From the IMG/VR virus record IMGVR_UViG_3300020205_001800, positions 36,627 to 100,626 of that record: a stretch of DNA of 64,000 nucleotides; one strand, written 5' to 3'. Numbering within the stretch: position 1 is the first letter of the stretch; each line of letters starts with the position of its first letter. The DNA is from a virus. Below the pieces are notes generated by a model that saw only the letters and a list, made by a program, of their open reading frames with translations, was not told the origin of the DNA and made no database searches. The translations under genes were made by a program, and so were the position numbers. Positions 34,655 to 48,614 of the stretch are shown piece after piece.

Positions 34655-34681
34655 ACTACGCCCCACCCAACACAAACAATA

Positions 34682-34716
34682 AGCCCCCCACCGTAAGGTG
34701 AGGGGCTATTGTTTTA
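34682..34716. terminator. Terminator at the convergence of + and - transcription
   Basis: AGCCCC-cCACC-gtaa-GGTG-aGGGGCT + T-rich tail. Confidence 0.75.
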
Positions 34717-34830
34717 TTTACAAGTGCAGTTTCCGCAACCGCATTCAGTTTTAGGTGTTTCTTCAGTTTCTTTGATTTCTTTTAGGACATCACTAATTGT
34801 TTTAATTGGTAATACTGTTTCAAAGTCCAT
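34714..34830 (-). CDS. 38-aa protein with C-terminal CGCGNCTC (not in ORF track)
   Basis: MDFETVLPIKTISDVLKEIKETEETPKTECGCGNCTCK. Confidence 0.55.
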   Translation of the reverse strand: MDFETVLPIKTISDVLKEIKETEETPKTECGCGNCTCK

Positions 34831-34832
34831 AG

Positions 34833-35075
34833 TTATTCGTCCTTTGGTTCTTTGAATTGTGCAACTGCGGTCATAGATTTACCATCTTCAGACACTTCCC
34901 ATGGTAAACGACTGCGATCAATTTGCTCAGCTGCCCAACGTTTTGCTGGAGCTGCGCTAGAGAATGCGGCTGCTTTTAGAATAGGGCCGTTAATCTCATC
35001 ACTAACAATTGCTAGCCATGCCCCACCCTTATTTAAATTCTTGCGTACTGCAAAGAAGTAATTTACTTTTGCCAT
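34833..35075 (-). CDS. Hypothetical protein
   Basis: SD AAGGA. Confidence 0.7.
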   Translation of the reverse strand: MAKVNYFFAVRKNLNKGGAWLAIVSDEINGPILKAAAFSSAAPAKRWAAEQIDRSRLPWEVSEDGKSMTAVAQFKEPKDE

Positions 35076-35084
35076 ATTGTTTCC

Positions 35085-35342
35085 TTATCCTAGTTTGATA
35101 CCGTGCTCGGATAGGTCAAACCCTACCATCTTTAAGTCACGTTTGATATTTTTGCCTGCTCTGAAGTCTCCAAGCGATTGGCTACCGAAGAAGACGATCT
35201 TGCCTGTTTCTGGGTTACGTACCCGGATGTGTTTCTTGCCGGGGGTAACGCTTACCTCTAAACCTGCACCCTCAAGTGCAGATACTAGCTTTCTTATATG
35301 TTTATCACGTAGTTTTATACTTACCATAGCCAATATGACCAT
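35085..35342 (-). CDS. HicA-like toxin-fold protein
   Basis: LEGAGLEV...KKHIRV.NP.TG...DFRAGKNIKRDL. Confidence 0.6.
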   Translation of the reverse strand: MVILAMVSIKLRDKHIRKLVSALEGAGLEVSVTPGKKHIRVRNPETGKIVFFGSQSLGDFRAGKNIKRDLKMVGFDLSEHGIKLG

Positions 35343-35452
35343 AGTTGTTCCTTTCCCTAATTTATGAGGATATACTTATGCCGTAATCTCTTTTAGAACT
35401 AAGAGTTCACACCATTGATGGTGCCTCCGGAGTGCGTCCGGAGGCCTCACCA

Positions 35453-35647
35453 TTATTTCTTTAAGAACGTAATGTCTACGATAGCCGCATCTTCACCTGG
35501 GCGATTAAGGTCTGTGGTGGGGATCCACTCGCCTAGATTTTTATCGTATACCCATAGACACCAGTCGTTATCTTCCTTATCTATACGCCACTTAGCTATA
35601 TCAACTTCGTACGTAATCTGGACTTTATAGATTAGGTCATCTGCCAT
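35453..35647 (-). CDS. Hypothetical protein
   Basis: ATG at 35647 with GGGG SD preferred over 35704. Confidence 0.55.
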   Translation of the reverse strand: MADDLIYKVQITYEVDIAKWRIDKEDNDWCLWVYDKNLGEWIPTTDLNRPGEDAAIVDITFLKK

Positions 35648-35675
35648 GTATACCCCGATTGTTTGTGTTGGTGGG

Positions 35676-35900
35676 TTAGTGATTGTGTCCTTCGTAGTCT
35701 TCAATGACTGCCATTACGGCGTCATCTAGGTCGGTAACGAGCATTTCAATTTCATCGTCACTCCACCCCTCTACCATTTCTTTTGTTACGATGGATTTCC
35801 AGATTACAGTACTTGGGCCTCCTCCGCAACATCCGCATCCGTTGCCGCATGCTTCGTCACCAAACACTGTGCATTTGCATTCTTCGCACATTGTTGACAT
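35676..35900 (-). CDS. Hypothetical Cys-rich acidic protein
   Basis: SD AAGGAGG. Confidence 0.7.
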   Translation of the reverse strand: MSTMCEECKCTVFGDEACGNGCGCCGGGPSTVIWKSIVTKEMVEGWSDDEIEMLVTDLDDAVMAVIEDYEGHNH

Positions 35901-36061
35901 TATTCCTCCTTAGATGTAATGGAGATTCCAGTTTCTGTACGTATAGCCGTAATGCTGGGGAACCGGCTTTCAACAGCTTCTTTTGTTTCTTCGAAGGTAT
36001 TGAATTTACTCATGAGCTCATTGAGCTCCGCCATATCTGCTAAAGATATACCGCCTTTCAT
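35900..36061 (-). CDS. 53-aa hypothetical protein (not in ORF track)
   Basis: SD AAGGAGG; TAATG coupling at both ends. Confidence 0.65.
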   Translation of the reverse strand: MKGGISLADMAELNELMSKFNTFEETKEAVESRFPSITAIRTETGISITSKEE

Positions 36062-36531
36062 TATTCCTCCTTACTTTGTAGTTGGATAACTTCATCACCT
36101 TCTGGGCTATAGCAGGATGCCATAACTTTGAGGTGAAGTTCTTCACGCATCTTCTTGAAGGCTTCTTTAGGCCAACCAGATGCCATTACTTTCATCAACA
36201 GGGTGGTTAATGTATACGTTGGGTTGACGTTAAAGGCAAAAGATAGGGAATCTTTAACAGTCTGGTGGTCTTCCATTTCATATGCATACGCAGCAAGAAT
36301 TGTTGCAAAAGGAACAGCTTCTTGTGGGTCTGCTATATCTACAAGGCGTTTTAAGAGTGTTGCGCATTCCACCATTGAATAGTGAACAGGAATGCCTAAC
36401 AAGAAGTCTCTTACTTGTATATCATTGTTAACAGCAAATATAATCCGCTTGGCATCTTCTTCAAGCAGGTTATTTTTACCTACAGATTCACGCACTAATT
36501 CGCACGCTTCTCTTCTGGTTATTGTTGTCAT
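36061..36531 (-). CDS. DUF4192-like helical protein
   Basis: DIQVRDFLLG...ATILAAYAY...P.Y.L..LL...GWP. Confidence 0.6.
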   Translation of the reverse strand: MTTITRREACELVRESVGKNNLLEEDAKRIIFAVNNDIQVRDFLLGIPVHYSMVECATLLKRLVDIADPQEAVPFATILAAYAYEMEDHQTVKDSLSFAFNVNPTYTLTTLLMKVMASGWPKEAFKKMREELHLKVMASCYSPEGDEVIQLQSKEE

Positions 36532-36686
36532 TTTTCTTCCTCCTCTTTATCGAGTCCTAGCATTTCTAGGATATCTTCTGCACCCTTTGCAATTAGAAGG
36601 GCTTTTGCTTTTGCTTTATCCTCCGCCTTTAATGCCATGTCTAGGCGTAGGAGTTCTTCGCTGTATTTCAGCTCTTGCTTGGCCAT
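36528..36686 (-). CDS. 52-aa hypothetical protein (not in ORF track)
   Basis: TAATG and ATGA coupling. Confidence 0.6.
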   Translation of the reverse strand: MAKQELKYSEELLRLDMALKAEDKAKAKALLIAKGAEDILEMLGLDKEEEEK

Positions 36687-36877
36687 TACAAAGACGCCAT
36701 TAGTCCTGGGGCGTTATCTTGAGCCCATTCAGCCGGCTCAGAGATAGGCTCAATGGTTAGGTTTGCACCACCATCTGCTAACTCATCAGATGCGTAAAGT
36801 AAGAACATTTGCGCTGTCTCATAGTCGTTGTATGGACCAAATAGTGTTTCTGTTAGGCTATCGAATATAACGTACAT
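36686..36877 (-). CDS. Hypothetical protein
   Basis: SD AAAGGAG. Confidence 0.7.
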   Translation of the reverse strand: MYVIFDSLTETLFGPYNDYETAQMFLLYASDELADGGANLTIEPISEPAEWAQDNAPGLMASL

Positions 36878-36908
36878 TTTGTTGCTCCTTTGTCTTTGTT
36901 TGTGTTGG

Positions 36909-38843
36909 TTAGCGTCGCCCGCGCTTTTTGATTGCTGATGTAACTACCTGCTTTGCAAACGGTAGTAAATCAGAGGCGTTGTTGATACGAGCAAACACCT
37001 CAGCACCGTGATGGAATTGCTTTGGATCTTGCCCGCGATCGTCGACGAAGTAACTGTAATCACTGTCGTTCATAATCAGTGTCATGGCTGTAAGGATGCC
37101 ACGCTTGCCGATACGCTCAATGATTGCGTCATTTTTCTGTGAGTCAAACACACCGTCAGTTACCATGAACAGCATTTTGTTCTTCTTGCGAGAAGACATG
37201 AGTAACTGCTCTGCAACTAACAGCGTTGGGTATGGCTCGGTACCACCGTTGCCGTAGATGAACTTGTACTGAGTCTTGTCGGCTAACTCTTTGCGGGAGT
37301 AAGCAACCTCAGCTGAGTCATCGAAGGCATAGACAGTAACGGGCGCTTGAATTGACTCAAGAGCACGCTTGATAGTCCAGCAGGCGATGGAAGCCTTCTT
37401 ATCGTTCTGTTGACTGGACATTGATCCTGATCGATCCACTAGGATGACGGCCTCAATATCACATCCATCGTCGCCCTCATCCCAACGATCAAAGGCTGTA
37501 TCAATCTCACAGCCTCTGATTACACGTTGAACATTGAGTCTGCCGGTGGGTGTTTCTTTCTCCCACGTAGGCTCCATGTCATCGCGTAAACGTTGGAGTT
37601 CTTGAGCGAACTTACGGTAAGCAACGATTGATTCACTGGGGACAGAGGTCTTATCGAACTTGCCCTTCTTGGTAATGTCGTCGTGCTTACCATCTCCACC
37701 AACAATAACTTTCTGCTTGGCTTTGATGTCTGCTTGAACATCCTTGCGTGCAAGGACGTTGTCGATAGCTGTATTGAGCATGTCATTGATATTCTTAGGA
37801 ATACCGCCGACGCTATCAACGTGACCAGAACCTGGCGTTGTTTGAGGTGTCTGGTTGACACCCTTGTCACGCAGGTCTAGTGCTTGTTCTGGTGTGGTTG
37901 GTTGTAATGGAGCACCGTCTGCAGGCTTGTCACTGTTGCCATTACCATCAGCATCGTCAGCTTTGTCGGTTGGAGTACCGCATCCGCCGGGATGTGTTTG
38001 TGTTGGTGCAGGCTTGGGCTTTGGATGCCACGGTGCTTCTGCTGTACCCATACCCTTGGCACGATCAGAGTCTTTCTCTTGAGCCTTGCCAGGTTCAGGT
38101 CGTCCCTTGCCTACCGGCATGCGATGACCGCAACCGTTGGGACCACCTTGATGAGATATATCATCATAGATACCCATAGGTGCTAAGACTTCATCATTGA
38201 ATCGTTTAACTAATACCTTAGCTGTGTCGTAGTCGCGTGGGAACGCAAGCAAACGATACTGATCAATGATGTCGATGGCTGCTGGGATTACTTCAGGGAA
38301 TACGAACTCGTCGCGGAACGCCTGACGAATCTCAACAGGTAGGTAACGACGTCCGCGAATGCAGATGTAATTACCACGCATGTTGTCTGCATCTTTACCA
38401 AGCCACCTGGATACTGTGGCTGTGAGATAAGACGCAACGGCTGGATAACGTGCAACGAATAACGTCTCGATACGTTGATCTTCGAGGATATTAGTTGCTT
38501 GTATATAACCATTCTCTACAACCCACTGCATGAACGTCGTACCCTTGCGGGGCGAGTACAAGTGGTGGCTTAGCTCATGATAGTTAAGACCTGTAACTTG
38601 AGTTAATGTCTCAAGGTCCATGTCTTCAATCTGATCTAAGTTAATGTAGATGGATTGCCCGTCTGACCACGCTGGTGCGGGGCCGTCTGGCATCACATTA
38701 ACGATGACGGGGTCGCCAGTTAATACACGGTCACCTTGTTCGTAAACACGGCACAGTGCATTGAGTCGGACAGCACGTTCTTGTGCTTCTTCATCTCTGG
38801 CTTCCCTGTAACGATAACCATCGTCTAACTCTTCGTTATACAT
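36909..38843 (-). CDS. vWA (MIDAS) protein with N-terminal HExxH metallopeptidase-like domain
   Basis: HELSH...NILEDQRIE; DRSGSM, GGT, VTDG. Confidence 0.88.
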   Translation of the reverse strand: MYNEELDDGYRYREARDEEAQERAVRLNALCRVYEQGDRVLTGDPVIVNVMPDGPAPAWSDGQSIYINLDQIEDMDLETLTQVTGLNYHELSHHLYSPRKGTTFMQWVVENGYIQATNILEDQRIETLFVARYPAVASYLTATVSRWLGKDADNMRGNYICIRGRRYLPVEIRQAFRDEFVFPEVIPAAIDIIDQYRLLAFPRDYDTAKVLVKRFNDEVLAPMGIYDDISHQGGPNGCGHRMPVGKGRPEPGKAQEKDSDRAKGMGTAEAPWHPKPKPAPTQTHPGGCGTPTDKADDADGNGNSDKPADGAPLQPTTPEQALDLRDKGVNQTPQTTPGSGHVDSVGGIPKNINDMLNTAIDNVLARKDVQADIKAKQKVIVGGDGKHDDITKKGKFDKTSVPSESIVAYRKFAQELQRLRDDMEPTWEKETPTGRLNVQRVIRGCEIDTAFDRWDEGDDGCDIEAVILVDRSGSMSSQQNDKKASIACWTIKRALESIQAPVTVYAFDDSAEVAYSRKELADKTQYKFIYGNGGTEPYPTLLVAEQLLMSSRKKNKMLFMVTDGVFDSQKNDAIIERIGKRGILTAMTLIMNDSDYSYFVDDRGQDPKQFHHGAEVFARINNASDLLPFAKQVVTSAIKKRGRR

Positions 38844-38855
38844 GGTTTACCTTTC

Positions 38856-40295
38856 TTATAGTTGGCTAGCGAGGTTGCCGGCCCACTCAGTCAACTTTTC
38901 TTCAATTGACTGTCCTTCTGTTCCTTGCGCAGGCATAGGAATCTCAATACCAAAGTCACCCTTGATATTGTATTCATGTGTCTGGAAGACCAAGCGAACA
39001 CTTGGCTGTTCGTCCGAAGAGAAGTGAGCGATGAAGTTCTCAACTGCGAACTCATAACCCAATGCATCTACGAAGTGATGAAACTCCATCAACATATTGG
39101 TTGAGATTGGAGTTTCGTACTGACCCTTGGCTGCTTCAGTACGTAACTGCTTCGATAGCACACGAAGAGACTTGGATGGAACCAACTTCTCTTCTACTTT
39201 GTCATCGTAATCCCATGGGATTTGGATGTCGAAGCGATTGCGGAATGCGAAGTTCAACGACGTTGTGCCGATGTAATCCGGATTCATAGTAGCGAAGATA
39301 GTGAGGTCAGGATGAGCCTCAATGGTCTCGCCATGATGATCAAGCAATGTGATCATGCGACGTCCGTCAAGTAATGAGTACAAGACGGTATAGATTTTAG
39401 GACTGATGAAGTTAACCTCATCAAGAAGCAAGACACCACCGTTACGGACTACGTCAGTAACAGGGCCATCAATCCATGCGAATGAACCGTTGCCGTCAGA
39501 TACGAACTTACCGGTCATCTGGCTTGGCTCCATAGAAGCATTACCAGATACGGTAGCCATACGCAGGCCACGTTCAGCAGCCCATGCCTCAACAGACGTT
39601 GTCTTACCTGGACCAGTAGGGCCGTAGATAAGCACGTTGATGCTGTTGGCACGAGCATGATCGAACACCTTGAAGTCTTCTACTTCGAAGACTTTGCGGT
39701 GAACATAGCGCTTGGCTAGCTCAATGCGGGGCACTGATGCTAATGACGCCATGATTACCGCACCGTTGTTGGTATTAGATTCCATTTGAATTTCAAACTT
39801 ATCTAATACTGCTTGGTTGAGTTGTGGTGCTGGAGTTGTTTGTGTTGGCATAGTTACCAAAGGCACAGTAGAACCAGAACCACGACGGTTGTCGATGATG
39901 TACTCACTCAACGCTACATCTTGCGATGTAACTTGCTCATACAATTCGCACACGCGTTCCAAGAATGAACTTGGATCCGCATTGGGTGCAGCCTTGGTAT
40001 GTGCTTGACATGCTTTGGTGCCGAGTACTGGGGAATAGCCCTTAGCAGTCATAGCTTCTTCATCTGTTGCTGTAACGTACACAGCAACAGGCGTACGAGT
40101 GAGTTGCTCGTCGCTGTCAATCTGTCCAGTGAGACCATCGAAGTCTGTTTCTTCCCACTTATTGTGGGGACCTTTGGTCCCATCTGTCTCACGTGAGTAG
40201 ATGCGCACATCATCACCATGCGGTGTTATTAGTACCTGACGACGCTTAGCGCCCATGGCTGGTGTGTATGACTCTGTGAATATTGCGATATCCAT
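38856..40295 (-). CDS. MoxR/CbbQ/CobS-type AAA+ ATPase
   Basis: GPTGPGKT, WIDGPV, LLLDEVN, ATMNPDY.GT..LN.AFRNRF. Confidence 0.9.
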   Translation of the reverse strand: MDIAIFTESYTPAMGAKRRQVLITPHGDDVRIYSRETDGTKGPHNKWEETDFDGLTGQIDSDEQLTRTPVAVYVTATDEEAMTAKGYSPVLGTKACQAHTKAAPNADPSSFLERVCELYEQVTSQDVALSEYIIDNRRGSGSTVPLVTMPTQTTPAPQLNQAVLDKFEIQMESNTNNGAVIMASLASVPRIELAKRYVHRKVFEVEDFKVFDHARANSINVLIYGPTGPGKTTSVEAWAAERGLRMATVSGNASMEPSQMTGKFVSDGNGSFAWIDGPVTDVVRNGGVLLLDEVNFISPKIYTVLYSLLDGRRMITLLDHHGETIEAHPDLTIFATMNPDYIGTTSLNFAFRNRFDIQIPWDYDDKVEEKLVPSKSLRVLSKQLRTEAAKGQYETPISTNMLMEFHHFVDALGYEFAVENFIAHFSSDEQPSVRLVFQTHEYNIKGDFGIEIPMPAQGTEGQSIEEKLTEWAGNLASQL

Positions 40296-40392
40296 ATAAC
40301 TTACCCCTTCTAGGTATTGGAATCGTTGTTGTCTTGCGACAACTACTACCGACTATCGGTAGCATCCCCCTGCAGATGCAGAGGAAACTTGG

Positions 40393-40647
40393 TTAATCGT
40401 CATCGTCGTCATTTAAAACGCGATTCTCTAATACGGTAGCCATCTCGAATGCTACTACCTTGCCTCGAGGCCACTCGGTGATTAGGTCAAACAACACGCC
40501 GTGTGATTCGGCTTTATCTATAACGAGGTTCATCTGTTTACTGATGTACTCAAAGAACTCTTCTTTTTCTTCATCATTAAGATTATTGAAATCAAAATCT
40601 TGGGCTGTGAAGTCTTCGTCATCATTGTTCTCACATGCTTCGCACAT
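40393..40647 (-). CDS. Acidic hypothetical protein
   Basis: SD AAAGGAG. Confidence 0.7.
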   Translation of the reverse strand: MCEACENNDDEDFTAQDFDFNNLNDEEKEEFFEYISKQMNLVIDKAESHGVLFDLITEWPRGKVVAFEMATVLENRVLNDDDDD

Positions 40648-40699
40648 GTCTATCTCCTTTATCTAGTGGGTAAAACCGAGGGGCATGCCAATATGACAC

Positions 40700-40984
40700 G
40701 CCCCTCGGGGCTGTTTTGAACACATTACGTAGGAAGTGTTACAGGGACTGGAACATTAGCGACTACGGGCGACTCAGGTCCGACTGGCAGGTGGCGGTTG
40801 GTGGGACTAACTGGTCCTGTTTAACCATCCACTCGTGCTGGTGCCGTCTTGTTTCCGGCTTGGGTTTGATCAAGTATGGTGCAGACTACTTCTCTGTGTT
40901 CTGCAGCATTACCAACGACTCTCCAGTTCTTAGGATGGCAGTTTTCGTCATGAATGGCTCCCGCTGACCGTCTAATAGGCTGGT
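40700..40984 (-). ncRNA. Candidate structured non-coding RNA
   Basis: ~285-nt gap with no credible ORF; several helices (GCCATCC/GGATGGT, TGCAGA/TCTGCA). Confidence 0.4.
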
Positions 40985-40997
40985 TTGTTTGTGTTGG

Positions 40998-41504
40998 TTA
41001 TTGAGGGAAGTGGGAAGATCGTTCTTGTTCCCATTGAGCCAATGCGTTAGGGCCTTGAGACACTAACAGGCTTAAGTAGAACGGGCTAGGCATTTGCTTA
41101 GTGATGGCAGATACAATGCTCATAGTATGATTTGATACTGCAGCATACTCAGGCTTGCTACGCATAATTGCAGCGCCTGCTAGTTCTTTGTCACCCCAAG
41201 CAAAAGCTAAGGCTGCAAGATACTCTGTGTATACCTGCAGATCAACGCTTCCATCTTGTGATGAACGAACACCGCTTCGCAGTGCATCTAATATACTGGC
41301 TGAAGACAATGAGCCAGGCTCAACGTTAACAAGTATGTCTGCTAACACTGCGTCCCTGTAGTTTTTGCTTGCTCTTGATGTCTCTACGAAGTTAACAGGA
41401 ATACCTCCTACAACTAACATTCGTCGTGCTGTTCCAGGAACCTCTGCAATATCTGATCGCATAATGGTTACTGAACTGTCATACTCAACTGTTGGGTTTG
41501 ACAT
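40998..41504 (-). CDS. Second DUF4192-like helical protein
   Basis: YRDAVL...YLAALAFAWGD..LA. Confidence 0.5.
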   Translation of the reverse strand: MSNPTVEYDSSVTIMRSDIAEVPGTARRMLVVGGIPVNFVETSRASKNYRDAVLADILVNVEPGSLSSASILDALRSGVRSSQDGSVDLQVYTEYLAALAFAWGDKELAGAAIMRSKPEYAAVSNHTMSIVSAITKQMPSPFYLSLLVSQGPNALAQWEQERSSHFPQ

Positions 41505-42180
41505 AGTTTGCTATCCTCTTTTCTAGTTCGGTTGGTTCTTGCTTTATTACCTTGCCTTCTCTCAATCGGACTGGGAAACCATCCCATTGAAGAGAAATTA
41601 ATTTACTACCGTAGTCGCGTTTGCCTGTGCCACTACAGTAATAACATTCATGTGCTTTGTAAAGCGTGTGCTTGGAAGCTTTACCGTGAACGCATTGGTC
41701 TGCTTCATGCCAACGTGCATGGGGACGTTGAGGATCAACCTGTGCTGTTGGGTGCAGATCACAAGGTAACTCTCTGTAACAACTAGTAGGTCCCCAACAT
41801 TGCTCGTCTTGCCTGCCAGATGATTTACAGATTCTGCAACCTTGAATCTTTGCTGGTGTGCGTGAGGGGTTGGCTTCTACAATGAACCACTTACTATTGC
41901 GTTGGTGCACATCGTGTACGCCGGAGAAGTCGCGGATAATTCCTCTAACTCCTTGACTCCACAAAGGGTTCCAATGACCATTGGGTGATACTGATTGAAT
42001 AGTTGTAGTGCCGTCGGGGTAATAAAGCACTACGTCATATGAGTTAGCCCAACCAAGGCCTACAGCAATGTGATCGGCTCGTTGAAATAACCTAGCACCG
42101 CGTGTGTATAGAGGTCGTTCTGTTTTCTTCTTGCCACCTTTGAGCCATAACTCTGCGGTGACGTAGTCGTAGACGCGCAC
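41485..42180 (-). CDS. Hypothetical protein with DnaJ-type CxxCxGxG motifs
   Basis: CRICKSSG, CYYCSGTG. Confidence 0.7.
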   Translation of the reverse strand: MRVYDYVTAELWLKGGKKKTERPLYTRGARLFQRADHIAVGLGWANSYDVVLYYPDGTTTIQSVSPNGHWNPLWSQGVRGIIRDFSGVHDVHQRNSKWFIVEANPSRTPAKIQGCRICKSSGRQDEQCWGPTSCYRELPCDLHPTAQVDPQRPHARWHEADQCVHGKASKHTLYKAHECYYCSGTGKRDYGSKLISLQWDGFPVRLREGKVIKQEPTELEKRIANYVKPNS

Positions 42181-42482
42181 TATTTTGCCTCTACTGTGTC
42201 AAACAAGCCTGCATAGCACATGTCGAAAGCTTCTTCGCGGTCTTGTTCTGTGCGGCGGTGTTTGTGTTGGGGCACATCGTAATCTTCATCAAACCATACG
42301 ATACTGATTGGATTACGTCGTGCACGTTCTGGTGCAATGATGAACAGGGCTTGACCTAAGCCGTCAATGACTCCGGTGTGATATGCCCTGCCATGCTGTG
42401 AATCAAGATCGTGAAGTTCAAGTTCTTCTTCAACCATCTTGCGTTCTATGAGCTTAGCTAACTTGCGATGTCTCAATCGCAT
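42180..42482 (-). CDS. Hypothetical protein
   Basis: SD GGAGG. Confidence 0.65.
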   Translation of the reverse strand: MRLRHRKLAKLIERKMVEEELELHDLDSQHGRAYHTGVIDGLGQALFIIAPERARRNPISIVWFDEDYDVPQHKHRRTEQDREEAFDMCYAGLFDTVEAK

Positions 42483-42804
42483 TTGTTTCCTCCATTTCTA
42501 CTCTAACTACTTCAACAGGATACTCAGGCACACTACGAAGCTTGTGCCCACGCATTGTTGGTGTAGTCCCACCCTGGATAGAGTGGGTGTCGTTTCTGTC
42601 CATAGCGTCTTGCAGACATGCTGCTATGACTGGGCAGGTCTTGCATACAGCGAGCGCGTTACGCTCTCTGCTTTCTCTTTCTTCACCACGCTCATTATGA
42701 TCGTAGTAAAACATGCTTACGGGGAATTCTTTGCATGCGGCACTATCTTGCCACTTAAAGTTGTCTGGATTGTATACGGATAGGTTGTTGAGACTATTTA
42801 ACAT
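42454..42804 (-). CDS. whiB: WhiB family transcription factor (WhiB3-like)
   Basis: WQDSAAC...MFY..NERGEERESRE..A..VCKTCPVIAAC...SIQGG. Confidence 0.85.
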   Translation of the reverse strand: MLNSLNNLSVYNPDNFKWQDSAACKEFPVSMFYYDHNERGEERESRERNALAVCKTCPVIAACLQDAMDRNDTHSIQGGTTPTMRGHKLRSVPEYPVEVVRVEMEETNAIETSQVS

Positions 42805-42931
42805 TCTTTGAGTCCAACCTACGCAGATACATGCGCGTCTCCTCCGCGTCCCAGTATCGTTCACGCCAATAGAGGGCTGACCAAATAGATATTACATTGG
42901 TGATTAACCCAAGTATTAAGAATACTTTCAT
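42794..42931 (-). CDS. 45-aa single-TM protein (not in ORF track)
   Basis: MKVFLILGLITNVISIWSALYW...; SD GAGG. Confidence 0.55.
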   Translation of the reverse strand: MKVFLILGLITNVISIWSALYWRERYWDAEETRMYLRRLDSKNVK

Positions 42932-43077
42932 AGTTTTTCCTCACTTACTGTGTCGTAGAGAGTATCGATGCCGTCATTCCACAACATCAATGCTTCTTTT
43001 CTAGTGCAACCGTGAAACAACTGTGCTTCTAATAAGAACAACAGCTTTGCTACGGTGTCTACTTTAGTCTTTGACAT
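42928..43077 (-). CDS. 49-aa hypothetical protein (not in ORF track)
   Basis: SD GAGG; ATGA overlap. Confidence 0.55.
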   Translation of the reverse strand: MSKTKVDTVAKLLFLLEAQLFHGCTRKEALMLWNDGIDTLYDTVSEEKL

Positions 43078-43345
43078 CGTCTTCCTCAGTTTCTTCTTCA
43101 TATACCCAACCTACACTTTCGGCTACTGACATCATTACTTCATCAATATTGGCTTGATGATATTTCCAATAATCTTCGTGTGTATCCATGATAGTTGCTA
43201 TCTTGACCCACTGTTCAAGAGGTATTGGTCGCTCATCGTTAAAGAAGAGTTCAAAGTCTTCTTTACCAAATATGCTGTATATGGTAACTTCGTCATCAGG
43301 CTTGAAGTTATCTTGTAAATCTTTGATGACTTCTGATACTTTCAT
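43064..43345 (-). CDS. Acidic hypothetical protein
   Basis: ORF track. Confidence 0.7.
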   Translation of the reverse strand: MKVSEVIKDLQDNFKPDDEVTIYSIFGKEDFELFFNDERPIPLEQWVKIATIMDTHEDYWKYHQANIDEVMMSVAESVGWVYEEETEEDDVKD

Positions 43346-43466
43346 TTTGTTATCCGTTCTGTTAAGTTGTTTGTGTTGGTGAGTGGTTTAGCCTTGTCAC
43401 ACTCAGGACAGGAGTTCTTTTACCTCAGGAAGAACTATAGAAACCAACTGTCTTATCTCCTTTCTC

Positions 43467-43756
43467 TGTTGATAAGACAGGGGACACACGCATTACTATC
43501 TGAATTACCGTGAGGCTCACTCTGTGACCTCTCTTGCGTTGTTGCACTCTGTATGTAAGCACAGTCGCGTCTTTTCTTACATACTTCACTCTTACTACGG
43601 GAGGACTAACATGCCCCACTGGGTACCTCTGACCCCATAGTCCGTATCACATCAGCTTCTTCACGCTCCCTGTATGCAAGACTTAGCCTCCCCCATACAT
43701 TCTTCGTCCTCGGTGATAATAGATAACCTATGCGTGTGTCTCCTGCCTTATCGACA
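43467..43756 (-). ncRNA. Candidate ~290-nt structured RNA closed by a 27-bp stem
   Basis: Arms 43467-43493 and 43730-43756 (24/27 Watson-Crick); internal helices GTATGTAAG/CTTACATAC and GGGAGG/CCTCCC; strand inferred from flanking genes. Confidence 0.65.
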
Positions 43757-43760
43757 TGTG

Positions 43761-43859
43761 TTACTTACGAATGATCTTGAAGATAACTATTACGCACACT
43801 GCAATTACAATCAACATGATTGTATCTACAGGTATGTCTAACTCAGCTGAGAGATACAT
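43761..43859 (-). CDS. 32-aa single-TM protein (not in ORF track)
   Basis: MYLSAELDIPVDTIMLIVIAVCVIVIFKIIRK; SD AAAGGA. Confidence 0.55.
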   Translation of the reverse strand: MYLSAELDIPVDTIMLIVIAVCVIVIFKIIRK

Positions 43860-44316
43860 AGTCTTTTATCCTTTCTGTTTGTAGTTGAATTATTTCTTCT
43901 AACGCTGCTTTCTTATCTTTGTAATCATCAAAGGGAACTATCATTGTGTGTTCGTTGATGTATACAAGGTCATAGAGTTTTTGTTTGAGTAGTTCTAACT
44001 CACGCTCCATGCTCTCTAATATTGTCCAACCATGACAGAATTCATCATCTGTTTTGGGGTGCCAGTTGGTAACTGTTTTCTCTGGGATGTTCATGAATTG
44101 GGTGAACTCATGCGCACACTTGTGACACAGCGTGAATTGCAGGGGGTTTTCTTCACCTACATAGTAGATGTTGTCTACGAACATTGCGTAGCCACCATCT
44201 AGGGATAGTTCTAGTGCTACGGGTATGTCTGAGTCCATGTATCCAGGTGCTGTCTTGAATACTTGGGGGTCTTGACATCGTGAGCATTCAATTATTCTTG
44301 TTTTAATATTTTCCAT
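43843..44316 (-). CDS. Hypothetical Cys-containing protein
   Basis: CSRC, LCHKC. Confidence 0.65.
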   Translation of the reverse strand: MENIKTRIIECSRCQDPQVFKTAPGYMDSDIPVALELSLDGGYAMFVDNIYYVGEENPLQFTLCHKCAHEFTQFMNIPEKTVTNWHPKTDDEFCHGWTILESMERELELLKQKLYDLVYINEHTMIVPFDDYKDKKAALEEIIQLQTERIKDYVSLS

Positions 44317-44524
44317 TGGTTCCGTCCAGTTTGAGGAATACGAGGATGCTATCGATCCAGTATTGCCATCGTGGGTATTTGATGCGGTTGGGGTCTTCAA
44401 GGTCTGTCAGTAAGCGATGTATGTGGATGGTGGTTTGTTTGTGTTGGGGAATGTCACACACAGCGAGGTGCTCTTGGAAGCGGGCTTCTTGCTTATCGTT
44501 GATGTAATCACAGAACAGTTTCAT
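44303..44524 (-). CDS. Hypothetical protein
   Basis: TAATG coupling. Confidence 0.6.
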   Translation of the reverse strand: MKLFCDYINDKQEARFQEHLAVCDIPQHKQTTIHIHRLLTDLEDPNRIKYPRWQYWIDSILVFLKLDGTNGKY

Positions 44525-45024
44525 TAGAGTGCACTCAGCGCATCGTTGAACATCTGAGCCTTGACTTCTTCATCATTAGACATATTGAGAACAGCAATGG
44601 CTTGGTAAACAGATTCATAGATTGATGGACACTCGTCCGACCAACTACGACCTCTGCGAGTCTGTAAGAAAATTGGACGATCAGGTGATACAGGTCGTTC
44701 AGGATACTTGCCTACGGCTCGTATTACCTGTGCTTCAGTTACTGTAACAGCGGCTTGGGCTGTAACTTGATAGTCTGAACCACTGTATCGACTACGTCGA
44801 ATGTCGTACTCAACTCTGTCTAACTTGCACATACTGTATAAGTAGGTGTGTACATCTTTTTCGTATTGCGCTACTGCTATGTCGTACTCAGCGTCATCGT
44901 AGTACCATTTGGCTAACGCCTTGTCGTACTTGTCCTTCTCTGCTGTCATAAAGACGTAGCGTTCCTGTAGTTGTTCTAACAGGTCTACCCTACGAACTTT
45001 TAATGAGTTCATGGTTGTTGCCAT
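44524..45024 (-). CDS. Hypothetical protein
   Basis: SD AGAAGGGG. Confidence 0.75.
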   Translation of the reverse strand: MATTMNSLKVRRVDLLEQLQERYVFMTAEKDKYDKALAKWYYDDAEYDIAVAQYEKDVHTYLYSMCKLDRVEYDIRRSRYSGSDYQVTAQAAVTVTEAQVIRAVGKYPERPVSPDRPIFLQTRRGRSWSDECPSIYESVYQAIAVLNMSNDEEVKAQMFNDALSAL

Positions 45025-45119
45025 TTGTATCCCCTTCTAGGATGTGCATAGGCATGGTAGTTCCATGCACGATGCGGGTTGTTTTTGTGGTTATTGTGGT
45101 TGTTATTGTGATTGTGGTG

Positions 45120-45341
45120 CTACAGGTTCCAGATGAGACCATATGGATCCTGCTCCTTTGCCTTAGTGATGCAGTCCGTGCAGGTTTGGCCTGTTGGTTC
45201 TGCAGTTTGATAGTCGTAGTGACTAAGCTTGATTTCGGGATTGCATACTGCGTGCCACCAAGTGTCGGGGCTGATGACAATCTCTTCATCAGTGCCGCCG
45301 TCTTCGGGGTCGTATAGGTGCGTTTTGTTTGTGTTGGGCAT
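45120..45341 (-). CDS. Hypothetical protein
   Basis: ORF track; 13-mer motif begins in codon 2. Confidence 0.6.
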   Translation of the reverse strand: MPNTNKTHLYDPEDGGTDEEIVISPDTWWHAVCNPEIKLSHYDYQTAEPTGQTCTDCITKAKEQDPYGLIWNL

Positions 45342-45342
45342 G

Positions 45343-45585
45343 TCAGCCTATTCTCTTGTTGTAGTAGATGATTGCTTCTTCCAATGTCCACGCGTATTCA
45401 CCTTGGATACAGATTCCTGGACCCTCGATATATGTATGGACAACGAAAGGTGTTACTTTATTGTGGGACAGGAAGCACAGCACGATTGTCGTGCCGGGGG
45501 TTGCTCCGGGCTTACAGGCTAATACATCTCCTCCATTGCCCTCGATGTGTGTCCCCACACTGATGACTGTTACTTCATCAGGCAT
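45343..45585 (-). CDS. Hypothetical protein
   Basis: SD GAGGAG; TAATG coupling. Confidence 0.65.
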   Translation of the reverse strand: MPDEVTVISVGTHIEGNGGDVLACKPGATPGTTIVLCFLSHNKVTPFVVHTYIEGPGICIQGEYAWTLEEAIIYYNKRIG

Positions 45586-45752
45586 TAGTCTTTCTCCTCA
45601 AGGTCGAAGTCTGCAGAGGTCATCTCTACATACTTATCGTCGTCAACTTCCTTCTTATGGGTGTAGATAATAATCTGCCCATAGTTATCCTTGTCAAGAG
45701 CGTAGTTAGGTGCAACTAGCGCAATCAACGATCTGAATAGATAACCTCTCAT
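45585..45752 (-). CDS. Hypothetical protein
   Basis: TAATG-coupled start at 45752. Confidence 0.6.
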   Translation of the reverse strand: MRGYLFRSLIALVAPNYALDKDNYGQIIIYTHKKEVDDDKYVEMTSADFDLEEKD

Positions 45753-46024
45753 TAGTATCCTTTCTTCCTTAGTAGTCGGAATATGTAGCGTGGCCACCAC
45801 GCATAGGTGCGGAATAGCCAGTCTTTAGTGTCATCAATGGCTACATCACAGATAGTTGTATTGGGGTTGTGTTCTTGCATGACGATTTCAATAGCATCAT
45901 TGAGGAATAGCCAATCGGGGTTATCCATGTCGTCATACCAAGTGATGGGCTTGTCGCCCGTGTAATAGACTGATACAAGAAGAGTCTTACGCTGCCTCAT
46001 GGGCAGTTCTTCAATATCACTCAT
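45752..46024 (-). CDS. Hypothetical protein
   Basis: ORF track, start adjusted. Confidence 0.6.
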   Translation of the reverse strand: MSDIEELPMRQRKTLLVSVYYTGDKPITWYDDMDNPDWLFLNDAIEIVMQEHNPNTTICDVAIDDTKDWLFRTYAWWPRYIFRLLRKKGY

Positions 46025-46187
46025 TGTCAGCCTTTGCCATCTGCTCACCAATGAAATACGCCATGCATGTATCGCATGACGAACGGTGAACCAGATCGTT
46101 GTAGTGATTGATGAGGTGCTTACGAACCTTCAAGGCGTGGTTGCGAATGTAGTCCCAGTCCGGCGTGTTTGTGTTGGGCTCATCCAT
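46017..46187 (-). CDS. 56-aa hypothetical protein (not in ORF track)
   Basis: MDEPNTNTPDWDYIRNH...CDTC; overlaps neighbours at both ends. Confidence 0.55.
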   Translation of the reverse strand: MDEPNTNTPDWDYIRNHALKVRKHLINHYNDLVHRSSCDTCMAYFIGEQMAKADNE

Positions 46188-46338
46188 GGAGCGCCTTCAT
46201 ATCTTGTGTGATGACGGTGTATGCAATAGCACAGGGACGACAGTAAGTCTCGGTTGGGATACCGCCTAACTGGAATGCGTCAGTGCCACTGTAGACAAGG
46301 TCTGTGTTTTCACAGTGTATTACTTTGCATGTTGCCAT
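46180..46338 (-). CDS. Small Cys-containing protein
   Basis: SD AAAGGAG before MATCKVIHC. Confidence 0.65.
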   Translation of the reverse strand: MATCKVIHCENTDLVYSGTDAFQLGGIPTETYCRPCAIAYTVITQDMKALHG

Positions 46339-46365
46339 GCTCTTCTCCTTTGTCTTTACTCTTCT

Positions 46366-46481
46366 TGTGAAGAGTGAGAGATACATAAGTCTTTTAGGCT
46401 CGCAGTTTATAGCGTCCGCCGACGACATGGGCTTTTCGCACCCCGTCCTAAATACTACTTATGTATCTTCCACCTTCCACA
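46366..46481 (-). ncRNA. Long stem topped by a multi-branch junction
   Basis: AGATACATAAGT/ACTTATGTATCT 12-bp perfect core; TTTAGG/CCTAAA; three small hairpins. Confidence 0.55.
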
Positions 46482-46511
46482 CGGTAAAATTTCGCGGGGG
46501 ATTTTGGTGTA

Positions 46512-46808
46512 TTACTTCATAGGATGTAGATATCCATTGGTCTTACGATAGGCATAGACACGTTGTCTAATAGCGCGGGGGTTTGGATACTCTATGGCTA
46601 TTGCTATGTGCTTTATCATGATGCCATCATCTACAAGGGATACCAATAGGCTATCGAACTCTTGGTCTTTGCTATCTCTCTTGCCATGATTGCCTTTGAC
46701 TGTGGATATGTGAGGCATCAGCTCTCTAAGCCTATCTACATGCTGGCGGTGTATTGTTTTCATCGCTTGACCATGAGATAGAAGATAGAGGCAGAGATAG
46801 TCAGCCAC
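46512..46808 (-). CDS. Hypothetical protein, possible HTH
   Basis: IKHIAIAIEY.NPRAIRQRV. Confidence 0.5.
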   Translation of the reverse strand: MADYLCLYLLSHGQAMKTIHRQHVDRLRELMPHISTVKGNHGKRDSKDQEFDSLLVSLVDDGIMIKHIAIAIEYPNPRAIRQRVYAYRKTNGYLHPMK

Positions 46809-46860
46809 AGAAGAGTGATAGGCAGACCGGACTGCATAGGGTCTAGGTAATCTAATAGGC

Positions 46861-47076
46861 TCATACTGCTACCTGCTTTCCATCACATTGCTCATTGAAC
46901 ATAGTAGAGTGCCCACACTCTGTGCATCGGCATCTCCATACACGGACGAACTGATCATCGTAGTCAGCCACCTTCTCCACATAGTCCTCGTTGATACGAG
47001 GTGTCATTGCGTAGGTCATTACGTTCGGTGCCTGGCAATTACTACACGTGAACTTGAACCAAGCTGGTGCTCCCAT
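46861..47076 (-). CDS. Zinc-ribbon hypothetical protein
   Basis: CSNC...CTECG. Confidence 0.6.
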   Translation of the reverse strand: MGAPAWFKFTCSNCQAPNVMTYAMTPRINEDYVEKVADYDDQFVRVWRCRCTECGHSTMFNEQCDGKQVAV

Positions 47077-47327
47077 TACTTTTCCCATCCTTTCTGATAG
47101 GCGAACTCGTTGTAGCAGCCTGCGCACACATAGGCGCGGGCATTCTTTTCATACTGACTGTGCATAGTGCCACCACACTCAGAGCAGGGCTTATCACCGT
47201 GCCAGAGGATAGATGACATAAGGGCTAGTGCTAGGGTGTTGGCGTTTGTTTGTGTTGGCACGACAACCTGCTTTCTACTCTCCAGATAGAGAGTGAGAGA
47301 TACATAGTGGTATTCCATACTCGCCAC
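47076..47327 (-). CDS. Zinc-ribbon hypothetical protein
   Basis: CSECG...CAGC. Confidence 0.55.
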   Translation of the reverse strand: MASMEYHYVSLTLYLESRKQVVVPTQTNANTLALALMSSILWHGDKPCSECGGTMHSQYEKNARAYVCAGCYNEFAYQKGWEK

Positions 47328-47801
47328 CCATTTACAGGCATAGAGCCCATGGTGGTATCTAGTAACAACAGGAGTATTCTGCCCACTATGTATCTTCCAC
47401 CGACTATCTGATAACAGCAGGCCGAGCCTAGCCCAGACCTGGTTGGTCTCTCAATGCTCATAGTTGTGGAGTTTGTAGTAGCCAAACTATCTATGATGTG
47501 AGTTATGTCTCAGTATGTGGAAAGAGACCCTAGCCAGAACTAACTGAAGGGCTGACTAGGGTCTCTCGACAGAAGACACGATTTCTTTCTCTTACGGGGG
47601 CGGGCTAACGATTGGCTTGCGCACTTCCATAGCTCTGCGAGCATAGGTCTGACTGCTACCTATACCGATACTCTCGTATCTACCGAGTTGATTCGGATTC
47701 CCCTCTTACCATAGGGCTAGTAACTCCCTATCTACGCCCATAGTTATGTATGGACATAGATAGGGGCGGGGACATAAGCCCCCGCCACTACCCATTACCG
47801 A

Positions 47802-48302
47802 TTACAAAGCAGCGATGATAGCCTGCTTTTCCTCTTCGGTGAATGTAACACCCTTGGTTTTGAGATTACCAAGGGACTTGACCAACGCAGCAGACTTAGC
47901 CTGCGCTAGTGAACCGTCTGCAATAGATGCAAGCAGAGCGGTCTTAGCCTCGTCAGCAAGACGAGACTTGAGTGCGACGAGACGACCGAACATGAGTTCC
48001 TTGTCGCCTGTTGCATCGAACGTGCGCCATACCTGTGCAAGGTCATCTTGCATAGGCACGAGGAACGAGATAGGCACGCCTGAGCGTGCTGAGATGAGAC
48101 CAGACAGAACAGCAGCACCTGCTGCGTCTGACTGCTTCGTGATGTGGTCATACACATCATCGAAGGTTGCCTCAGGAAAAGCCACGAATACCTTCTTGGC
48201 TTGACCTATCCCGTAGGGTGTAGCACCCTCGTTGATTACTGCCAACTCGATAGCCACGATAGGCGCGAGTTGTTCCTTCATACTTAGTGTCGTTGTGGAC
48301 AT
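47802..48302 (-). CDS. Hypothetical protein, first gene of the leftward region
   Basis: SD AAAGGA; flanked by structured leader and trailer. Confidence 0.8.
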   Translation of the reverse strand: MSTTTLSMKEQLAPIVAIELAVINEGATPYGIGQAKKVFVAFPEATFDDVYDHITKQSDAAGAAVLSGLISARSGVPISFLVPMQDDLAQVWRTFDATGDKELMFGRLVALKSRLADEAKTALLASIADGSLAQAKSAALVKSLGNLKTKGVTFTEEEKQAIIAAL

Positions 48303-48346
48303 TTAGTATCCTTTGAACATAGAGACAGGACTATCCTGTCTCTAGC

Positions 48347-48409
48347 CTTACGGCGTGCCGACCTAGCGAGTCGAACGCTAGCGAAGCACCGTGCGTCGGC
48401 GACCGTAAG
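48347..48409 (-). ncRNA. tRNA-like T-loop minihelix element
   Basis: GCCGAC..CTAGCG-TTCGACT-CGCTAG-GTCGGC-A, enclosed by CTTACGG/CCGTAAG. Confidence 0.5.
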
Positions 48410-48614
48410 AGGAAAGAAATCTTCCTTTTCTTCTTGCTCCCTTTGGGATTACACCTCTAGCAAATCAAACAGACACCCCCCACCCTTAAGACACAGGAAA
48501 CACAGGAATTCGGCAGGTGAGACGGATGGTTGGACCTATATTTCATATGACAGTGGCCAAAAATCGGGGGGTATTGAGCGTTACAGGGCAGTAGCCAGGC
48601 TCTAAACTGACCAA

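Follow-up and report, generated by a model that had tools for sequence, protein, structure and literature searches.

An exact 12-letter word, oriented with transcription and evenly spaced, recurs through a single operon of fast-changing small genes in an uncultured family of actinobacterial phages

Results

An uncultured family of about 100-kb phages of actinobacteria carries one exact 12-letter word, CCAACACAAACA, always pointing with transcription, about every kilobase through a single operon of fast-changing small genes, even inside protein-coding sequence. The word is a real, selected control signal, whereas its reader and mode of action can only be inferred from sequence. It was analysed in IMG/VR virus record IMGVR_UViG_3300020205_001800, a circularly assembled genome of 100.6 kb with three WhiB genes. 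The window is the 64,000-nt stretch covering positions 36,627 to 100,626 of this record, and all coordinates below refer to it.

47264-47415, minus strand: conserved structured leader of the operon, with a covarying long stem and an alternative local hairpin; a TTGAGA-18-TAGGCT promoter-like pair, spotted by eye, lies just upstream at about 47420-47455.
47247-47258, minus strand: copy 1, in the operon leader, 19 nt after the conserved leader hairpin and directly after a GTG.
46166-46177, minus strand: copy 2, 2 nt after the TGA of ORF 46180-46428 (ATGA overlap with the next ORF).
45326-45337, minus strand: copy 3, 5 nt after the TGA of ORF 45343-45585, reading PNTN at the start of the next ORF.
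44436-44447, minus strand: copy 4, inside small ORF 44303-44524, reading QHK.
43368-43379, minus strand: copy 5, intergenic, 22 nt before the ATG of ORF 43064-43345.
42259-42270, minus strand: copy 6, in the lineage-specific C-terminal tail of the 100-aa ORF 42180-42482; in most relatives the copy sits 30-67 nt upstream of this gene instead.
40986-40997, minus strand: copy 7, directly after the TAA of ORF 40998-41504.
39837-39848, minus strand: copy 8, in the hypervariable linker of the CobS-like AAA_5 ATPase gene (38856-40295).
37995-38006, minus strand: copy 9, in the linker of the VWA-domain gene (36909-38843).
36897-36908, minus strand: copy 10, directly after the TAA of the VWA gene and 20 nt before the ATG of the conserved 63-aa gene.
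35660-35671, minus strand: copy 11, 4 nt after a TAA and 12 nt before the next ATG; the last copy, about 950 nt before the terminator.
34833-47258, minus strand: body of the leftward operon that carries the array, with about 30 small ORFs, most of them variable between relatives.
34682-34707: G+C-rich hairpin with T-rich tails on both strands, the terminator shared by the two convergent operons.
34667-34678, plus strand: single inverted copy in the 3' untranslated end of the convergent ribonucleotide-reductase operon, 12 nt after the TAG stop codon and 3 nt before the shared terminator hairpin.
50793-50804, plus strand: one-mismatch copy TCAACACAAACA, directly after the TAA of the 353-aa gene and 11 nt before terminator hairpin 50816-50843.

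Copy number, spacing and orientation

The exact 12-mer occurs 12 times in the window, 11 times on the minus strand and once on the plus strand, while dinucleotide-preserving shuffles gave 0.03 expected copies with a maximum of 1. The array described in the first-pass annotation was thus confirmed, although its minus-strand start coordinates were each 1 nt too low. The gaps between minus-strand copies matched those listed there (1237, 1098, 1842, 1149, 1273, 1109, 1068, 890, 840 and 1081 nt). Their CV of 0.225 is far lower than expected by chance (P about 2e-5 for uniform placement between the end sites). In the whole genome only one more exact copy is present, and the 10-mer core occurs 18 times, always co-oriented with genes. 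Loose near-matches outside the operon, in this genome and three complete relatives (G000-G003), were found in both orientations (13 co-oriented, 7 anti) and are close to the number that chance would give. The other leftward operon of the window (19.5-23.6 kb) contains no copy, and the array is a property of one operon and not, as had been suggested, of leftward transcription. The description of this region as early is an assumption.

As had been noted, the plus-strand copies at 34667 and 50793 each lie between a stop codon and a G+C-rich hairpin with a T tract, and in-gene copies read PTQT, PNTN or QHK, that is, in all three frames. Five copies in the window lie 0-5 nt after a stop codon. Overall, 22% of copies lie 0-5 nt after a stop codon (random positions: 3%), and 27% lie 11-40 nt before an SD-led start (random: 7%). 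Roughly two thirds of copies do not lie within 60 nt downstream of an ORF's stop codon and so appear to sit inside ORFs. No extended flanking consensus was found, only a weak A/C-rich, T-poor stretch of 10-15 nt on the 3' side.

The placement before start codons could indicate phage-specific promoters, used by a redirected host polymerase or an unrecognised phage polymerase and giving many restart points along the operon. Exact, oriented, class-specific repeats in phage genomes are most often promoters. Moreover, a hairpin-word-SD-start module occurs in the relative G010, and the relative G002 carries the same word and SD at position 1186. However, no phage RNA polymerase or sigma factor was found in the window's proteins, the 977-aa ORF being a disordered charged protein, and no conserved -10-like element lies downstream in the T-poor flank. 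The most conserved copies lie mid-gene, about 1 kb from the next start, copies just before terminators would fire straight into a hairpin, and in several cases the SD starts 2 nt after the word. We consider this reading improbable.

Site-specific nick sites in virion DNA, as in T5, phiKMV-like phages and tf, share with the word a short, exact, strand-biased consensus that is unevenly distributed over the genome and evolves with the lineage (PMC3517423), and an HNH_3 gene is present. Yet known nick sites lie on a single DNA strand whatever the direction of transcription (PMC3517423), whereas here the orientation follows one transcription unit and a conserved copy lies on the opposite strand. 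Positional turnover with kept spacing has no known rationale for nicks. Of the four mechanisms offered in the first-pass annotation this one fits worst and is very unlikely. Docking sites for a DNA-organising or sliding protein (ParB/KorB-like or other) that covers the operon are even less likely. The single convergent copy at the operon boundary does look like a domain border, but the site is strongly asymmetric and not palindromic, no ParB-type domain was found in the window's proteins, and restriction to one operon with strict sense orientation points to transcription.

Conservation among relatives and selection on the nucleotides

Thirty-four of 35 related loci, whose CobS-like protein is 54-97% identical, keep the exact word on the gene strand, often at conserved positions. 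The 35th (L032) uses a transition variant; its lineage (L032/G007, G007 being a complete relative) carries CCAAC(G/A)TAAACA. The A/C-only composition pointed out in the first-pass annotation is therefore not essential, and the argument that the RNA cannot self-pair is weakened by this G/T-containing variant. The family consensus is YCRACRYAAACA, followed by A or C. In complete relatives the word is confined to the operon plus one inverted copy (G006, G008) or nearly so (G007 has one further match, G009 two).

Spacing was even in all 20 related loci tested (mean 1.0-2.1 kb, CV 0.12-0.45, each with P < 0.05), although some lineages manage with only 2-3 copies over the same operon. This evenness persists although gene content differs between relatives and copies shift relative to orthologous genes, which fits a site with a limited range of action, or selection to minimise the longest uncut piece. 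The core genes of the operon are the CobS-like ATPase, the VWA protein, a 231-aa Cys/His-rich protein, and the 100-aa and 63-aa ORFs; one WhiB gene was detected in only 9 of 35 related loci.

Selection acts on the nucleotides. In the disordered linker of the ATPase gene, whose flanks vary and carry indels, the codons CCA ACA CAA ACA, including their synonymous sites, are invariant in 24 of 28 distinct relatives. In the orthologous VWA linker the same 12-mer appears in different reading frames and at different positions in different lineages. Presence in relatives, regularity of spacing and synonymous-site conservation had been named beforehand as checks on the idea of a selected, transcription-oriented ruler of sites, and on each of them this idea held.

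As the operon is the most variable part of the region, the word might instead be a recombination linker, serving as microhomology or as a recombinase site at which related phages swap cassettes of about 1 kb. Several homology breakpoints end within about 15-20 nt of a copy, and the word is identical across very divergent genomes. However, most breakpoints between the closest pair (G000 and G001) do not coincide with copies, no dedicated recombinase was found, and there is no paralogy or duplication between units. Strong purifying selection inside two conserved genes and the inverted copy at the terminator would also remain unexplained, making this reading very unlikely.

Placement next to hairpins and accessibility

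All 27 related loci that reach the convergent junction keep one inverted copy in the order stop, word, then 2-7 nt, then terminator. A second stop-word-terminator module follows the 353-aa gene, and the same module, with an exact copy, follows the same C-terminal coding sequence in G009. Furthermore, the first copy of the array lies 2-30 nt after the conserved leader hairpin in five lineages, and in the hairpin-word-SD-start module of G010 the word again follows a hairpin. The adjacency to hairpins could simply reflect how short the intergenic spaces are, and the operon's own message has no copy near its 3' hairpin. Weak signs of single-strand reading were obtained: the word is more unpaired in its native context than when transplanted (0.75 against 0.70, p = 0.01), the downstream 50 nt are less structured than background, and the A/C-rich, T-poor 3' flank is found on one strand. 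These accessibility effects are small, and the instances are related by descent.

Candidate readers among the window's proteins

No integrase, repressor-type HTH, partition gene, sigma factor, RNA polymerase or NusG/KOW-type gene was found among the proteins of the window, a scan that left out genome positions 1-36,626. Of the binders proposed in the first-pass annotation, SpoVS and KTSC were confirmed by Pfam, RHH only weakly, and no MerR family was reported; no evidence was found that links any of the proposed binders to the sites. The HicA-like ORF 35085-35342 is a weak Pfam match (E = 0.0017) and is undetected in about a third of the relatives that carry arrays.

Discussion

The interpretation given in the first-pass annotation is partly supported: a selected ruler of sites read at the nucleotide level is borne out, but it left the choice open between a polar repressor roadblock, reloaded antitermination, RNase processing and nicking. 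Our analysis establishes the existence of the word, its orientation, its restriction to one operon, its even spacing, nucleotide-level selection, positional turnover and placement next to hairpins. That it is read at the RNA level, that its effect is negative, and what reads it are inferences.

In actinophages the only experimentally established oriented site arrays are DNA-level stoperators, and a stoperator-like polar roadblock is the closest, though doubtful, alternative. In this view a sequence-specific DNA-binding protein would stop RNA polymerase travelling in the sense direction and silence the accessory operon piece by piece, late in infection or in a carrier state, while the inverted copy would stop polymerases of the convergent operon at the boundary. 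Like the stoperators of Cluster A, CA and R4-type actinophages (L5 gp71 sites; PMC5559632, PMC13313380, PMC10276819), the word is an asymmetric site of 12-13 bp (12-14 bp in stoperators) with many copies co-oriented with transcription, often intergenic or overlapping gene termini, and with lineage-specific variants at a few positions. The host group is the same, as indicated by the three WhiB genes, the first copy lies in the leader soon after the likely promoter, and even spacing would cap the length of any spurious transcript. However, the absence of an integrase, repressor-type HTH, sigma factor or RNA polymerase from the window's proteins argues against a lysogenic repressor system, and the sites are confined to one operon plus one inverted copy rather than spread genome-wide. 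Many copies are written inside genes, and no operator was found on the promoter-like site upstream of the leader. L5 stoperators scanned in the same way are not evenly spaced (CV 0.8-2.0), which bears out the remark in the first-pass annotation that near-periodic spacing is not a stoperator feature. Moreover, the word is far more conserved across deep phage divergence than stoperator consensus sequences are between Cluster A subclusters, a roadblock just before an operon's own terminator achieves little, and a one-strand A/C-rich flank is not expected for a duplex site. Oriented intergenic direct repeats of T1-like phages (TLS; PMC11447400), whose function is unknown and which their authors also compared to stoperators, likewise lie in the direction of transcription between genes. 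They are longer and composite, lie up to 76 nt upstream of start codons, and are described without mention of in-gene copies or regular spacing.

A reloadable elongation signal, working like ops/RfaH or rrn boxA, is less likely still. The word, read in the non-template strand or in nascent RNA, would load a factor making RNA polymerase resistant to Rho or to pausing over a short range, and would have to be met again about every kilobase along a long operon of foreign, poorly adapted genes. ops and boxA are also oriented elements of 12 nt in leaders of long operons, read in single-stranded form, and boxA occurs twice in rrn operons. The sense orientation, the first copy next to a conserved structured leader RNA, and a long accessory operon in which no strong internal terminators were found would suit this reading. 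A limited range gives a natural reason for a maximum gap and for in-gene copies, and deep conservation of the word fits a conserved host partner. Against it stand the lack of a NusG paralogue among the window's proteins, the lineages with only 2-3 copies, and the copies 2-7 nt before terminators at operon ends, which make little sense for an anti-terminator. Up to 12 copies at regular steps also set the array apart from ops and boxA, and there is no real sequence similarity, the resemblance to E. coli boxA appearing limited to the AACAA end.

We tentatively favour, with a probability of about 0.35, a distributed off-switch read in the transcript. The word is a cis-acting signal on the sense strand of one leftward operon of about 12.7 kb, which runs from a leader at about 47.4 kb to a terminator at 34.7 kb and holds small, rapidly exchanged accessory genes. 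Selection keeps the nucleotides themselves and also keeps the copies spread out, so that no part of the operon is more than about 1-2 kb from one; in this view, where a long gene would leave a gap, the word is written into a disordered protein linker. This proposal rests on sequence alone, without observed RNA ends, cleavage products or binding. A reader with 12-nt specificity for single-stranded RNA is unusual for a nuclease, no candidate was identified, and the two most conserved copies lie inside translated genes, where ribosomes would hinder access. A parallel is provided by the RegB endoribonuclease sites (GGAG) and RegA translational operators of phage T4, which are short sense-strand signals concentrated in one temporal class of polycistronic messages, largely at gene junctions, and serve to switch those messages off. 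RegB reads 4 nt within Shine-Dalgarno sequences and RegA sites overlap start codons, whereas the word is an exact 12-mer placed after stop codons, in linkers and next to end hairpins at even intervals, and no homologue of RegB or RegA was detected. We propose that one sequence-specific factor reads the word in the mRNA at what would be cleavage, decay-entry or repressor-binding sites. These sit just inside the protective end structures, after the 5' leader hairpin and before the 3' terminator hairpin of the neighbouring operon, and recur at regular steps along the polycistronic RNA. The whole message could then be inactivated quickly, in a manner like the shut-off of T4 early messages by RegB and RegA.

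Copy number, orientation and spacing of the word

The exact word CCAACACAAACA occurs 12 times in the window, compared to 0.03 copies expected from dinucleotide-preserving shuffles. Eleven copies lie on the minus strand, at 35660, 36897, 37995, 39837, 40986, 42259, 43368, 44436, 45326, 46166 and 47247, and a single copy lies on the plus strand at 34667. This confirms the observation made in the first-pass annotation, except that the minus-strand starts recorded there are each one base low. All 11 operon copies are in sense orientation. Alignment of the copies revealed no extended consensus: the word is 12 bp long, its 13th position is A or C, and the 3’ side carries only a weak A/C-rich, T-poor stretch of 10-15 nt. 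The gaps between copies have a CV of 0.225, and only 2 in 100,000 random placements between the same end points were as even. Nevertheless, the period is not a strict lattice, the pattern being one of a minimum gap (840 nt) and a maximum gap (1842 nt).

Genomic context and the transcription unit carrying the array

The window comprises bases 36627-100626 of a 100,626-bp IMG/VR virus record, for which a 94-bp end overlap indicates a circular assembly. It encodes a terminase, portal, DnaB, primase, family A DNA polymerase, a UvsX-like recombinase, a class II ribonucleotide reductase, three WhiB proteins and a DUF4192 protein, a gene set that points to a phage of actinobacteria. No near match to cultured phages was found. 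A search with the portal protein for prophages or hosts returned only three MAG contigs, two of them (L044, JBBRXZ010000018.1, and L046, CAYUUT010000003.1) in bins labelled Saccharimonadales/Saccharibacteria and one short contig in a bin labelled Proteobacteria. These are probably phage contigs swept into the bins, and none was an integrated prophage. The 115-kb contig is a distant, tRNA-rich phage of 56% G+C that lacks this operon and the word.

The genome is transcribed rightward, except for a 4-kb envelope/lysis-like operon and the block that carries the word. This block holds about 30 small ORFs on the minus strand between 34.8 and 47.3 kb and ends at a G+C-rich hairpin shared with the convergent reductase operon. 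The features of the array operon and its surroundings are as follows.

3530-3718 (+), WhiB-family gene
13760-13981 (+), WhiB-family gene
34667 (+), single plus-strand copy of the word
34682-34707, G+C-rich hairpin shared by the array operon and the convergent reductase operon
35085-35342 (-), small basic ORF (pI 10.3) with weak HicA-toxin likeness (E = 0.0017), near the 3’ end of the operon
36909-38843 (-), VWA protein
38856-40295 (-), CobS-like AAA_5 ATPase
41485-42180 (-), basic 231-aa Cys/His protein
42550-42753 (-), WhiB-family gene inside the array operon, with a long C-terminal extension
47264-47415 (-), conserved structured leader element
47486-47801 (-), non-coding stretch after the 166-aa gene, with two further terminator-like or structured hairpins at about 47770-47790 and 47525-47575, ahead of the leader element
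49104-49670 (+), 188-aa Ntn-hydrolase or proteasome-beta-like protein (Pfam Proteasome, E = 5.6e-7; begins MTT)
50793 (+), second stop-word-terminator module, following the 353-aa gene
52031-54964 (+), 977-aa ORF without an assigned family, between the divergent region and the terminase

Upstream of the first copy lies a 545-nt non-coding stretch that contains the strongly conserved element at 47264-47415, which is also present in related loci (L013:4272-4386, L014:5250-5384, L018:3801-3918, L020:3951-4063, L034:4693-4794 and others) and in two tandem copies in the related locus L025. Across 13 relatives this element is predicted to fold into a long stem in which nine pairs show compensatory double changes, while its 3’ part can alternatively form a mutually exclusive local hairpin that also covaries. 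It resembles an attenuator or riboswitch. The only hit at gathering score to an Rfam family in the window is tRNA-Asn, and nothing significant was found at 47150-48650. A promoter-like TTGAGA-18-TAGGCT pair, identified by eye, lies just before the element. The operon therefore most likely starts near 47.42 kb, which places the first copy of the word in its leader.

Conservation of the word in related loci

The CobS-like ATPase of the block retrieved 35 related IMG/VR loci (54-97% identity), many of them from complete genomes of about 100 kb. All but one keep the exact word several times on the gene strand, and copy number per operon ranges from 2 to 12 by lineage. With one mismatch allowed, the family consensus becomes YCRACRYAAACA. 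The recurrent variants are TCAAC..., CCGAC..., ...ACAT... and, in the locus L032 and the complete relative G007, CCAAC(G/A)TAAACA, all of which are transitions apart from the last position. In complete relatives this degenerate pattern is confined to the operon plus one inverted copy (G006, G008) or nearly so, G007 having one further match and G009 two, whereas the reversed-pattern control gave 0-1 hits. Looser near-matches outside the operon, in this genome and three complete relatives (G000-G003), are few, near chance level, and occur in both orientations (13 co-oriented, 7 anti). The strict orientation rule therefore applies to the operon array, and also to a few special sites. The confinement contrasts with the stoperators of Cluster A type phages, which are distributed through the genome in both arms, although an asymmetric site, a length close to their 13-14 bp (here 12 bp plus the 13th A/C position) and a single orientation relative to transcription are shared with them.

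Gene content of the operon turns over heavily. Only the CobS-like, VWA, 231-aa Cys/His, 100-aa and 63-aa genes are widespread, and the CobS-like ATPase and the VWA protein are the only genes detected in all 35 related loci, which were themselves retrieved with the CobS-like protein. Both have long N-terminal regions of unknown function, joined by hypervariable linkers that host the word. The most conserved protein of the neighbourhood is the 188-aa proteasome-beta-like protein, with a median identity of 86% in 24 relatives, which is higher than for the CobS-like ATPase.

Selection on nucleotides and on spacing

In the CobS-like gene the word lies in a hypervariable linker whose flanking codons vary and carry indels, while CCA ACA CAA ACA is unchanged at every synonymous site in 24 of 28 distinct sequences. 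Moreover, in the VWA gene the orthologous linker carries the word in frame 0 (PTQT) in some lineages, whereas in others it is shifted by one base (PNTN/ANTN) or sits at another position. The word is therefore conserved while the peptide is not.

Copies also move relative to orthologous genes. Even so, all 20 relatives tested have under-dispersed gaps (CV 0.12-0.45, each P < 0.05, mean gap 1.0-2.1 kb). No paralogues and no DNA self-similarity beyond the 12-mer were found between units, which excludes that the period is a relic of tandem duplication. In contrast, L5 stoperators scanned in the same manner gave CV values of 0.8-2.0, which is not regular.

Placement next to stop codons, start codons and hairpins

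In all 27 related loci that reach the convergent junction, the reductase operon ends in the same order: a stop codon, 6-20 nt, the inverted copy of the word, 2-7 A/T bases, a strong hairpin whose sequence covaries, and a T tract. One relative has two such word-hairpin units in tandem. The stop-word-terminator module at 50793 recurs in G009 with a different hairpin. However, other strong terminators of the genome lack the word, ruling out a general link between the two, and no consistent hairpin follows the reverse complement of the word, as would be expected of antisense terminators. At the 5’ end, the first operon copy follows the leader hairpin by 2 nt (L020), 4 nt (L025), 19 nt (window) or about 30 nt (L018, L040). 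In G010 a hairpin is followed directly by the word, an SD and a start codon, and G002 carries the same word and SD at position 1186.

Over 195 distinct copy contexts, 22% lie 0-5 nt after an ORF stop, compared to 3% of random positions, and 27% lie 11-40 nt before an SD-led start, compared to 7% of random positions. About a third of the copies lie at junctions, while the rest appear to lie within ORFs, including the two conserved linker copies.

The conserved plus-strand copy and the plus-strand module at 50793 speak against localised nick sites of the T5, phiKMV and tf kind, since known examples lie on one DNA strand irrespective of the direction of transcription (PMC3517423). Likewise, promoters recognised by a single-subunit polymerase or a phage sigma factor are unlikely. 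Pfam and PHROG scans of the window’s proteins, which did not cover those of genome positions 1-36,626, found neither an RNA polymerase nor a sigma factor. The largest unassigned ORF of the window, the 977-aa ORF, is predicted to be a disordered, low-complexity and highly charged protein with a poor Atlas model (pLDDT 0.42) and no DFDxD-type motif. In addition, there is no downstream -10 element, and the best-conserved copies lie mid-gene or 2-7 nt before terminators, where promoters would fire into hairpins, rather than upstream of transcription units.

Reading of the word and candidate readers

Indirect signs lean weakly towards reading of the word in single-stranded form. The word is slightly more unpaired in its native RNA context than when transplanted (0.75 against 0.70, p = 0.01), the following 50 nt are less structured than background, and the A/C-rich flank is a one-strand property. 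Furthermore, the word sits on the message side of terminal hairpins at both 5’ and 3’ ends, as one would design for a site whose cutting or occupation exposes a message to exonucleases, although short intergenic spaces could produce the same adjacency by themselves. Against reading at the RNA level, the two best-conserved copies lie in translated regions, and no reader with 12-nt RNA specificity was found. A classical stoperator system, on the other hand, is opposed by the restriction of the sites to one operon, the many copies inside genes, the even spacing, and the copies just before an operon’s own terminator. The same Pfam and PHROG scans of the window’s proteins detected no repressor-type HTH, integrase or ParA/B, and no sign of lysogeny was found, although many ORFs have no family and absence is thus not proven. 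With regard to a loading site of the ops/RfaH type, a leader copy is present in five lineages and no KOW/NusG family appears among the proteins scanned, but a host factor cannot be excluded.

Across relatives with 54% CobS identity the word is more conserved than any protein of the region, which points to a very conserved reader, either a host core factor or a conserved phage protein. Lineage-specific variant usage (L032, L037) shows that the specificity can drift. A guide RNA was considered; the transition-only variants would be wobble-compatible with a G/U partner, but no partner was found. Neither the complement TGTTTGTGTTGG nor any 8-mer of it occurs on a sense strand in a plausible non-coding RNA of the phage. 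A possible likeness to the NusA-bound boxC RNA of M. tuberculosis was given no weight.

Two proteins of the operon were examined as candidate readers. The 231-aa protein, detected in 30 of the 35 related loci, has an invariant pattern of CxxC, three further Cys, His, CxH, His and CxxC, and its AlphaFold model is confident (pLDDT 87). As neither sequence profile nor Foldseek searches returned a PDB match, it may represent a new zinc-binding fold. The HicA-like ORF is conserved in 22 relatives with an invariant His, but is only weakly assigned, has no PDB relative and is not universal. No candidate can be named with evidence.

Interpretation

Altogether, these data establish that the word is real, family-wide and under selection for both sequence and spacing. 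The level at which it is read, its effect, binding by a protein that blocks elongation in a polar way, and an interruption of one strand of virion DNA are in contrast matters of inference from sequence alone. The first-pass interpretation of the array as a ruler of binding sites is partly supported. We tentatively favour a distributed mRNA off-switch read in the transcript (probability about 0.35). A polar roadblock at the DNA level ranks second and remains doubtful, and a reloadable antitermination signal is less likely still. Promoters, nick sites, recombination linkers and DNA-organising sites are each very unlikely. In behaviour the array most closely resembles stoperators, but it fails several of their defining features and we do not assign it to them. 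Literature searches for the word itself and for evenly spaced oriented phage motifs found no description of this word or of an operon-confined, evenly spaced, oriented array in the papers searched.

A possible, more far-reaching reading, held no more than tentatively, is that the array constitutes a measured ruler for a short-range, sequence-specific reader of the sense strand, either nascent RNA or the displaced DNA strand, that must be met again every 1-2 kb. This would be an operon-wide control of elongation or message life that has not been described, used by lytic actinophages to govern a cassette-swapping accessory operon. In this view, the phage would restore coverage by writing the word into protein linkers whenever gene gain stretches a gap.

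The array gives a clean natural example of selection on spacing itself, as the same word is re-created in different frames and places so that gaps stay short. Being exact, short and family-wide, the word offers a direct handle, by oligo pull-down or reporter insertion, for finding a new sequence-specific RNA- or DNA-reading factor in phages of abundant but hard-to-culture freshwater actinobacteria, and provides a marker for recognising this phage family and its accessory operon in metagenomes. If the array is a distributed off-switch or a reloadable elongation signal, it shows a way for a virus to control a long, constantly reshuffled operon as one unit without depending on any single gene junction.
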